Shown in pieces: positions 657-50,022 of a DNA stretch of 64,000 nt. The notes beneath the pieces are model-generated. The model saw nothing but the letters and a program-made list of their open reading frames with translations, did no database searches and was not told the DNA's origin. Origin of the DNA: Escherichia coli (lineage in GTDB: Bacteria > Pseudomonadota > Gammaproteobacteria > Enterobacterales > Enterobacteriaceae); assembly GCF_050920415.1 (NCBI RefSeq), contig NZ_CP169309.1. One strand, 5' to 3'. A program made the translations under genes and the position numbers. How positions within the stretch are numbered: position 1 is the stretch's first letter; each line of letters opens with the position of its first letter.

Positions 657-1775
657 ATGAAATACGATCTCATCATTATTGGCAGCGGTTCCGTAGGCGC
701 TGCCGCCGGGTATTATGCAACCCGTGCCGGTTTAAACGTGCTAATGACCGACGCCCATATGCCACCGCATCAACACGGCAGCCACCACGGCGATACGCGA
801 TTAATTCGCCATGCTTATGGTGAAGGCGAAAAGTATGTCCCGCTGGTCCTCCGCGCGCAAACGCTGTGGGATGAACTCTCCCGCCACAACGAAGAAGATC
901 CCATTTTTGTACGCTCTGGCGTCATTAACCTTGGCCCGGCTGATTCCACATTTCTCGCCAACGTCGCCCACAGCGCCGAACAGTGGCAACTCAACGTTGA
1001 AAAGCTCGATGCGCAAGGGATTATGGCCCGCTGGCCGGAAATACGCGTCCCGGACAACTACATCGGCTTATTTGAGACTGATTCCGGCTTTTTACGCAGC
1101 GAACTGGCGATTAAAACCTGGATCCAACTGGCGAAGGAAGCGGGTTGTGCGCAGTTGTTCAACTGCCCGGTCACCGCAATTCGTCATGACGATGATGGCG
1201 TAACTATTGAAACCGCTGACGGTGAGTATCAGGCGAAAAAAGCGATCGTCTGCGCGGGAACATGGGTAAAAGATCTGCTCCCGGAACTGCCTGTCCAGCC
1301 CGTACGCAAAGTATTTGCCTGGTATCAGGCCGATGGTCGCTATAGCGTGAAGAATAAATTCCCGGCGTTTACCGGTGAACTGCTCAATGGCGATCAATAT
1401 TATGGTTTTCCGGCAGAAAACGACGCGTTGAAGATTGGCAAACATAACGGAGGCCAGGTTATCCATTCAGCGGATGAACGTGTTCCGTTTGCGGAAGTGG
1501 CCAGTGATGGGTCAGAAGCCTTCCCGTTCTTGCGCAATGTATTGCCGGGTATCGGTTGCTGCCTGTACGGCGCTGCCTGCACCTATGATAATTCGCCTGA
1601 CGAAGATTTTATTATCGATACTCTACCCGGCCACGATAATACACTGCTCATTACCGGCCTGAGCGGGCACGGTTTTAAATTTGCGTCAGTTTTAGGGGAA
1701 ATAGCTGCCGATTTTGCGCAAGACAAAAAAAGCGATTTTGATTTGACGCCATTCAGGCTTTCCCGCTTCCAATAA
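657..1775 (+). CDS. solA: N-methyl-L-tryptophan oxidase SolA
   Basis: 372 aa ORF; N-terminal FAD-binding GxGxxG motif (IIGSGSVG); recognised as SolA. Confidence 0.95.
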
Positions 1776-1822
1776 TCATCATTACGGCCTCCAGAATGAG
1801 GCCGTTTTTACAGGAGTATTTA

Positions 1823-1936
1823 ATGCGTCGGCTGTTGCACTATCTCATCAATAATATTCGCGAGCATCTGATGCTTTATCTTTTTCTCTGGGGTCTGTTG
1901 GCAATTATGGACCTGATCTACGTGTTTTATTTTTAG
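1823..1936 (+). CDS. yceO: small hydrophobic protein YceO
   Basis: hand translation [37 protein letters not shown] (37 aa), SD caggag 7 nt upstream; below the ORF-track size cut-off. Confidence 0.6.
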
Positions 1937-2197
1937 TTTTTCCGCACTGACATAAACTGACAAATATTTAATCTCCCTTTCATTTAGCGTGAAAAATTGA
2001 ATGAGATTCTTCCTGCCTCTACAGCACTCACCAGACCTTCCAGATGCTGAACCCACTAAACTTATGAAGATTCTTTCATTATTAATTCAAAATTATTGAA
2101 ATAAAAATAAATATCATTCAATTTGTTATTTTTGTGTTGCAATTCATTCTCCGACACGCCATTTTCTTTCTCTCGCAAATTCGTTTTGGATGCACTT

Positions 2198-2764
2198 ATG
2201 TCATTCACAAATACCCCTGAACGCTATGGTGTTATATCTGCGGCCTTACATTGGCTAAGCGCAATTATTGTCTATGGCATGTTTGCTTTAGGTCTGTGGA
2301 TGGTCACGCTCAGCTATTACGATGGCTGGTACCACAAAGCACCCGAATTGCATAAAAGCATCGGCATTTTGTTAATGATGGGGCTGGTTATTCGCGTTCT
2401 TTGGCGCTTCATATCTCCACCGCCGGGTCCGCTGCAAAGTTATTCGCCCATGACTCGTGTTGGCGCAAAGGCAGGACATCTTGCATTGTACCTATTGCTG
2501 TTCGCCATCGGCATCAGCGGCTATCTGATCTCCACTGCCGATGGTAAACCGATCAGCGTTTTTGGCTGGTTTGACGTCCCCGCGACCCTCGCCGACGCTG
2601 GCGCACAGGCTGACTTTGCCGGTGCCCTGCATTTTTGGCTCGCGTGGAGCGTCGTAGTACTGTCCGTTATGCACGGATTTATGGCCCTGAAGCATCATTT
2701 CATCGATAAAGACGACACTCTGAAGCGCATGCTGGGAAAGTCGTCATCTGACTATGGAGTATAA
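2198..2764 (+). CDS. yceJ: cytochrome b561 family membrane protein YceJ
   Basis: ORF 2123..2764; start placed at internal Met (MSFTNTPERYG) to give the expected ~188 aa; multi-pass hydrophobic protein. Confidence 0.85.
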   Translation: MSFTNTPERYGVISAALHWLSAIIVYGMFALGLWMVTLSYYDGWYHKAPELHKSIGILLMMGLVIRVLWRFISPPPGPLQSYSPMTRVGAKAGHLALYLLLFAIGISGYLISTADGKPISVFGWFDVPATLADAGAQADFAGALHFWLAWSVVVLSVMHGFMALKHHFIDKDDTLKRMLGKSSSDYGV

Positions 2765-49920: not shown

Positions 49921-50022
49921 ATGCCGGATGCGGCGTGAACGCCTTATCCGGCCTACAAAACAGTGCAAATTCAATATATTGCAATCTTCTGGTAGGCCTG
50001 ATAAGCATCGCGCATCAGGCAA
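49921..50022. repeat. REP pair (BIME) between rutG and ymdF
   Basis: gccggatgcggcgtgaacgccttatccggcctac and inverted gtaggcctgataagcatcgcgcatcaggca. Confidence 0.75.

Follow-up and report, generated by a model that had tools for sequence, protein, structure and literature searches.

The small gene yceO between solA and yceJ of Escherichia coli: comparative support for a 37-codon reading frame

Introduction

Small inner-membrane modulators made of a single helix include AcrZ, which works with AcrB, MgtS with MgtA, MgrB with PhoQ, and CydX in cytochrome bd. The type I toxin peptides Ldr, Hok, TisB, Ibs and ShoB are likewise short, hydrophobic, helical and poorly expressed. For the E. coli gene yceO, Hobbs et al. 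(2010) is said to be the primary paper on the acid-stress phenotype. The gene itself is already known; it has been annotated for decades, has a curated Pfam family and a published deletion phenotype, and its product has been epitope-tagged and detected.

Lists of acid-stress small proteins and genes contain yceO (PMC12997748; PMC8765455). In a 2025 study in which YceO was the test case, top-down mass spectrometry detected 19 small proteins, this one included, and YceO with an SPA tag, made from the chromosome of K-12, which encodes the identical peptide, was detected by immunoblot (PMC12529367). The estimate given there puts its chromosomal level at least 10,000-fold lower than the one reached from pBAD with 0.002% arabinose. 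Elsewhere yceO comes up only in passing, within a deletion interval, in a Tn-seq table, in transcriptome tables and as the site of a mutation left unexamined in an evolution experiment. Literature searches found no paper under "DUF2770" and only unrelated matches under "b1058". What is added here, by comparing sequences, is only comparative support for a 37-residue start and a description of a conserved arrangement of terminator, Shine-Dalgarno (SD) site and ORF.

Results

Identity of the reading frame

We analysed a 64-kb stretch of E. coli DNA, called the window below; the positions of its features are collected in Table 1. A preliminary description of this DNA had pointed to a 37-codon ORF with a good SD site between solA and yceJ, had named it yceO, and had ascribed its absence from the ORF track to a 60-aa cut-off. 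Direct reading of the sequence confirmed an ATG at 1823-1825, followed by 37 sense codons and a TAG at 1934-1936. The SD site was predicted to form a duplex of -6.9 kcal/mol with the 3' end of 16S rRNA. The genes solA and yceJ flank the ORF on the same strand, with 47 nt between the end of solA and the ATG and 261 nt between yceO and yceJ. The ORF lister extended the frame to an upstream ATG, giving 46 codons (1796..1936). Both the 37- and the 46-aa versions are shorter than 60 aa, and the cut-off indeed accounts for the missing entry.

The name was borne out by Pfam, by the PGAP coordinates and by K-12 b1058. Pfam PF10968 (DUF2770) matched with 79.9 bits for the 37-aa form and 79.1 bits for the 46-aa form, against a curated gathering cut-off of 25. 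All 36 positions of the model aligned, with residues 1-36 of the shorter form, which are residues 10-45 of the longer one. The NCBIfam scan matched no model, and the NCBI name derives from the Pfam model. PGAP annotates a 114-nt CDS, "YceO family protein" (WP_001253418.1), at identical coordinates in E. coli strain MFDS1022581, which is 100% identical over the 551 bases around the ORF; this stretch had matches in 5424 of 5426 complete E. coli genomes. A 161-nt query spanning yceO was found as one copy per genome in 5414 of the 5426. The PGAP-annotated record of K-12 MG1655 also carries the 37-aa WP_001253418.1. In the curated K-12 reference NC_000913.3, yceO is b1058 (NP_415576.1), "DUF2770 domain-containing protein YceO", with 141 nt and 46 aa. 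The peptide of the window was identical to that of K-12, and the four nucleotide differences inside the ORF were all synonymous. We regard it as practically certain that 1823..1936 is yceO, an already annotated and genuine small protein gene.

Table 1. Positions of yceO and of other features in the 64-kb window
Feature	Position	Strand	Basis or remark
solA	657..1775	+	upstream flanking gene
solA intrinsic-terminator-like hairpin	1784..1809	+	arms 1784-1791 and 1798-1805, loop 1792-1797, U tract 1805-1809
Upstream in-frame ATG (46-aa form)	1796..1798	+	K-12 reference start, NC_000913.3; probably not the main start
Shine-Dalgarno caggag (AGGAG core)	1811..1816	+	6-nt spacer to ATG 1823
78-aa ORF antisense to yceO	1820..2056	-	looks spurious
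yceO CDS, best-supported form	1823..1936	+	ORF list, PGAP CDS, Pfam PF10968, dN/dS
NNIREH motif codons (residues 10-15)	1850..1867	+	most conserved stretch of the family
Codons of C-terminal hydrophobic segment (residues 16-37), predicted transmembrane helix	1868..1933	+	hydropathy, AlphaFold2
Asp30 codon	1910-1912	+	D30 invariant, outside the search pattern
Direct repeat TGACA-N5-TGACA	1948..1962	+	starts 11 nt after yceO stop
Inverted repeat TTCAAAATTATTGAA	2086..2100	+	block conserved across genera
TTGCAA-N17-CATTTT	2137..2165	+	block conserved across genera
yceJ	2198..2764	+	downstream flanking gene
ES056 sRNA	17899..17990	+	Rfam, above gathering score
tRNA (serX position)	23589..23673	+	Rfam, above gathering score
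Ysr251	32519..32712	+	Rfam, above gathering score
naRNA4 (CssrE)	33856..33933	-	Rfam, above gathering score
ymdG, 8 aa	39228..39254	-	annotated E. coli gene; putA-putP intergenic region
ES036 (CssrF)	49957..49999	+	Rfam, above gathering score
ymdF, 57 aa	50121..50294	-	annotated E. coli gene; 98% DNA identity to K-12

Conservation and synteny across genera

Searched with index-free HMMER, 1.84 billion representative proteins yielded 38 relatives at E <= 0.001. Apart from truncated, frameshifted or repetitive entries, they shared the pattern MRR..[YF]L.NN[IV]REH.....LW...A..D..Y. In some of the representatives, mis-annotation had joined YceO to the SolA C-terminus, a first pointer to a solA-yceO arrangement in other genera. 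A word-indexed protein search gave only relatives from Escherichia and Shigella; HMMER and a genome scan reached other genera. The scan, in which one genome per species was searched with the NN[IV]REH motif as the retrieval pattern, yielded 113 confirmed loci. The best 80 of these 113 were analysed, making 81 loci with the window. They span Escherichia, Citrobacter, Salmonella, Enterobacter, Klebsiella, Raoultella, Kosakonia, Leclercia, Lelliottia, Atlantibacter, Cedecea, Buttiauxella, Siccibacter and others, plus one Yersinia. Judged by these searches, yceO is restricted almost only to Enterobacteriaceae.

The first 36 codons were compared among 76 unique homologues of about 20 genera, taken from the same best 80 of 113 loci and the window. 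The yceO frame was open in all 76, and the other five frames were open in 0 to 21. Entropy at the three codon positions was 0.78, 0.27 and 1.31, and the median pairwise dN/dS was 0.14 in the yceO frame vs 0.79 and 3.5 in shifted frames. By this substitution pattern, yceO is under purifying selection as a translated coding sequence. Lack of a translation signal and of conservation had been named in the preliminary description as the findings that would speak against the ORF; what we found was an SD site and purifying selection, to which PMC12529367 adds the immunoblot.

Among the 81 loci (the best 80 of 113 and the window), solA lay directly upstream on the same strand in every one. The solA-yceO gap was mostly 46-139 nt, with Buttiauxella sp. 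A111 (10 nt) and Yersinia rohdei (1146 nt) as exceptions. Vertical inheritance within one family may be all that this strict linkage reflects. The genes yceJ-yceI followed downstream in 66 of the 81 and were absent from the other 15 (Klebsiella, Raoultella, Pluralibacter and others), in all of which yceO was intact. In 9 of these 15 loci a convergent trhO shared 3-10 nt with the 3' end of yceO, and in the remainder trhO was further downstream or not found.

Variation was also observed. In-frame length variants of E. coli YceO differed in the Leu-Tyr stretch of the helix, reading LYLF, LYLYLF (39 aa) or LYLYLYLF (41 aa), or carried a two-residue deletion. Several rare E. coli alleles were frameshifted, with unrelated C-termini, and the gene of Salmonella enterica subsp. 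arizonae was truncated after 22 codons. Such variants suggest that the sequence is prone to slippage and that yceO is now and then lost.

The hairpin upstream of yceO and expression

Directly after the solA stop codon, RNAfold predicted a hairpin of -16.3 kcal/mol (z = -2.97) with the form of an intrinsic terminator. In E. coli the SD site of yceO starts two bases past its U tract. A simple terminator scan of 1500-2400 did not call this hairpin because the maximal stem absorbs one T of the run; folding and a comparison of the loci established it instead. Among the best 80 of 113 loci and the window, 79 of 81 had a GC-rich hairpin of -8 kcal/mol or better (median -15.3) between solA and yceO, ending a median of 21 nt before the start codon, and a T-rich tail followed in 45 of the 81. 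The stems varied between genera (GGCCTC/GAGGCC, GCTCCGG/CCGGAGC, GGCTTCGG/CCGAAGCC and GCCCGG/CCGGGC), indicating that the structure rather than the sequence is maintained.

A simple scan of 1500-2400 found no sigma-70-like promoter on the plus strand. Since the SD site abuts the solA U tract and no promoter-like site was found upstream, expression of yceO is probably weak. Its mRNA would arise by read-through of the solA terminator, or from a weak promoter inside the 3' end of solA; either origin fits the very low abundance of the protein.

In loci from Klebsiella and Raoultella, this upstream hairpin follows an A run and has no T run downstream. There it could serve as a terminator for the opposite strand (trhO), in which case yceO would be antisense to the trhO 3' UTR.

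Predicted structure of YceO

The hydrophobic character noted in the preliminary description was borne out by a GRAVY of 0.96, with 19-residue windows reaching 2.15 over the C-terminal half. Given a 62-sequence alignment, AlphaFold2 modelled YceO as one continuous helix over residues 2-36 (mean pLDDT 95.1). A PDB sequence search gave no solved relative even at E = 10. Three Arg and one Glu lie in residues 1-15. The hydrophobic segment of 22 residues (16-37) has no Lys or Arg, a single acidic residue (D30) and an aromatic C-terminal end. Because of this charge distribution and the positive-inside rule, YceO is predicted to be a tail-anchored inner-membrane helix with its N-terminus in and its C-terminus out.

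Invariant or nearly invariant residues were N10, N11, R13, E14, H15, Y19, L22, W23, A27, D30 and Y33. In alignments A2 and A3, N10, N11, R13 and H15 were invariant and E14 was at least 90% conserved. The peptide of the window carries NN[IV]REH, W23 and D30, which both alignments show as invariant or conserved to at least 90% and which were present in the index-free HMMER matches. Invariance of NN[IV]REH among the scanned loci is partly circular, the motif being the retrieval pattern; D30, W23 and Y19 lie outside that pattern, and the motif is also retained in the index-free HMMER matches, apart from one E-to-T change. Plotted on a helical wheel, N11, H15, Y19, L22, W23, D30 and Y33 lay inside an arc of about 120 degrees. 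Conservation had a helical moment of 0.14 vs a shuffled mean of 0.067 (p = 0.023), a result of modest significance.

Start codon and alternative readings of the frame

Two starts are annotated for yceO, and the K-12 reference version, on which the preliminary description was silent, was weighed against ATG 1823. If the true product were the 46-residue protein from ATG 1796, the 37-codon reading would be a truncation. The longer form is the one annotated for b1058 in NC_000913.3 (141 nt) and in UniProt, the frame is open from 1796, and the Escherichia loci examined carry ATG or TTG at that position. The 46-aa sequence was also used in the 2025 proteomics paper, and its 11-residue N-terminal peptide was observed (PMC12529367). 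However, the peptide was seen only with the 46-codon ORF in pBAD24 and its vector ribosome-binding site, a construct that says nothing about the native start. In the predicted RNA, the A and U of ATG 1796 lie in the loop of the -16 kcal/mol hairpin and its G opens the 3' arm; the SD-like duplex upstream is -1.7 kcal/mol, i.e., no SD site. The nine extra codons (MRPFLQEYL) lie outside the Pfam model, which begins at the second Met, and PGAP gives 37 aa, K-12 included. Base for base they are the 3' arm of the hairpin, the U tract and the SD site of the second start, so their conservation within Escherichia needs no coding role; outside Escherichia they were not conserved. Among the best 80 of 113 loci, 25 had an in-frame stop within the nine upstream codons and only 6 had an open start codon at the -9 position, the upstream translation being unrelated elsewhere. 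The position of the Met of MRR, by contrast, carried ATG or GTG in 76 of the 81 loci (the same 80 and the window), with an ATG one codon away in four more, and an SD-like site of -4 kcal/mol or better preceded the homologous start in 52 of the 81. By this comparison the conserved start of yceO is the Met of MRR. The 37-codon start picked in the preliminary description is the PGAP start and agrees with the Pfam model and with the cross-genus conservation. We infer that the main product is very probably the 37-residue form made from ATG 1823 and AGGAG; the 46-residue product is improbable.

The nature of the frame itself was considered in the same way. Short ORFs are plentiful, with 65 of at least 20 aa in the first 4 kb of the window, and an ORF of the length of yceO alone is no more than chance expectation. 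This, together with the extremely low native level described in PMC12529367, would suit a chance open frame in the region of the solA 3' end and upstream of yceJ, with no functional protein. The coding-type substitutions, with 76 of 76 frames open and a dN/dS of 0.14, the match to a curated Pfam family, and the detection by immunoblot and top-down mass spectrometry (PMC12529367) all argue against it. We judged yceO to be real because it matches a family, is conserved and has been detected in published work, not because of its length, and the chance frame was rejected on the Pfam match, the selection pattern and the published detection, its probability being negligible. A regulatory leader peptide (uORF) that controls the yceJ-yceI operon and has no protein function of its own would fit the position of yceO, upstream on the same strand with no terminator-like site called in between. 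However, 261 nt and a conserved promoter-like element separate it from yceJ, and the entire peptide is conserved, not a few codons. Co-occurrence with a regulated downstream gene was not found either, as yceO persists intact in 15 of 81 loci (the best 80 of 113 and the window) that have no yceJ-yceI; the leader reading is very unlikely. Size, a single hydrophobic helix and very low native expression make YceO resemble Ldr, Hok, TisB, Ibs and ShoB, and by that analogy it might be a type I toxin, a membrane-damaging hydrophobic peptide silenced by an antisense RNA. Against this, yceO is single-copy, vertically inherited and fixed after solA in all 81 of these loci, and the antisense frames are not conserved. 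Neither a cognate antisense RNA nor toxicity was found: no Rfam family matched 1700-2200 on either strand, and in the available part of PMC12529367 pBAD induction was routine, over-expressing cells being grown for 2 h and harvested with no mention of toxicity. A toxin is as improbable as a leader peptide. The preferred reading remains a genuine small protein gene with a 37-codon frame.

The yceO-yceJ spacer and other features of the window

Between yceO and yceJ, a direct repeat, TGACATAAACTGACA, was observed. Its pattern, TGACA-N5-TGACA, occurred only once in the 64-kb window. Among the best 80 of 113 loci and the window, it was found in 61 of the 66 loci with yceJ-yceI and in none of the 15 loci that have no yceJ-yceI. 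In most genera the second TGACA copy reads TTGACA and is followed 16 nt on by TAAnnT, forming a sigma-70-like pair about 235 nt upstream of yceJ. The element may serve as the promoter of a long yceJ leader or of a separate RNA; no site for a known regulator was recognised. Two further blocks of the spacer were conserved across genera, the inverted repeat and TTGCAA-N17-CATTTT, the latter ending about 30 nt before the yceJ ATG; together they look like an operator and a proximal yceJ promoter. The spacer was strikingly constant in length, at about 260-264 nt in most genera among the same loci.

The preliminary description had also suspected other small proteins hidden in the window, and this holds for the annotated ymdF and ymdG. 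The spot of yceO is covered on the opposite strand by a 78-aa ORF, long enough for the 60-aa ORF track. Across the yceO part, the antisense frame was open in just 21 of 76 homologous sequences, and it looks spurious. Rfam matches in the 64-kb window (Table 1) included none near yceO.

Discussion

Identity, coding status and the 37-residue start, taken together, can be held with good confidence. The start has practical consequences. If it is correct, the K-12 reference is nine codons too long, which would alter the masses and peptides expected in small-protein proteomics; the 11-residue target peptide used for YceO is one example. The 60-aa cut-off matters here as well, as it hides real genes (yceO, ymdF and ymdG) and leaves only the antisense 78-aa ORF at the yceO spot.

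In the proposed mechanism, the basic N-terminal 15 residues with NN[IV]REH would lie at the cytoplasmic face and the last 22 residues would span the inner membrane. A conserved polar stripe on a lone transmembrane helix is expected of a helix that packs on a membrane protein or on itself, and the conserved face of YceO would accordingly dock on a larger inner-membrane protein or mediate self-association. By analogy with small membrane modulators, it is conceivable, at somewhat less than even chances, that the binding target of YceO is a larger inner-membrane protein with a role in acid or envelope stress. A more specific scheme is doubtful: YceO would be a pH-responsive micro-regulator in which D30, buried in the outer-leaflet half of the helix, and NN[IV]REH let it attach to and tune a larger inner-membrane protein when the periplasm is acidified, with expression gated by read-through of the solA terminator. 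If true, it would explain the reported acid-shock phenotype.

Compared with described systems, the gene of the window is the same gene as K-12 yceO (b1058, PF10968, WP_001253418.1), with the same peptide and the same solA-yceJ position; the public records differ only in the annotated start (46 aa in NC_000913.3, 37 aa in PGAP). YceO differs from Ldr, Hok, TisB, Ibs and ShoB in having no Rfam antisense RNA, a single copy and strict synteny, and in that its induction was apparently tolerated (PMC12529367). It is closer in kind to AcrZ, MgtS, MgrB and CydX, with which it shares a length of 30-50 aa, one predicted transmembrane helix, a stress-linked phenotype and low abundance. However, it has no sequence relationship to any of these four, and unlike them it combines an unusually conserved juxtamembrane NN[IV]REH with an invariant Asp inside the hydrophobic segment.
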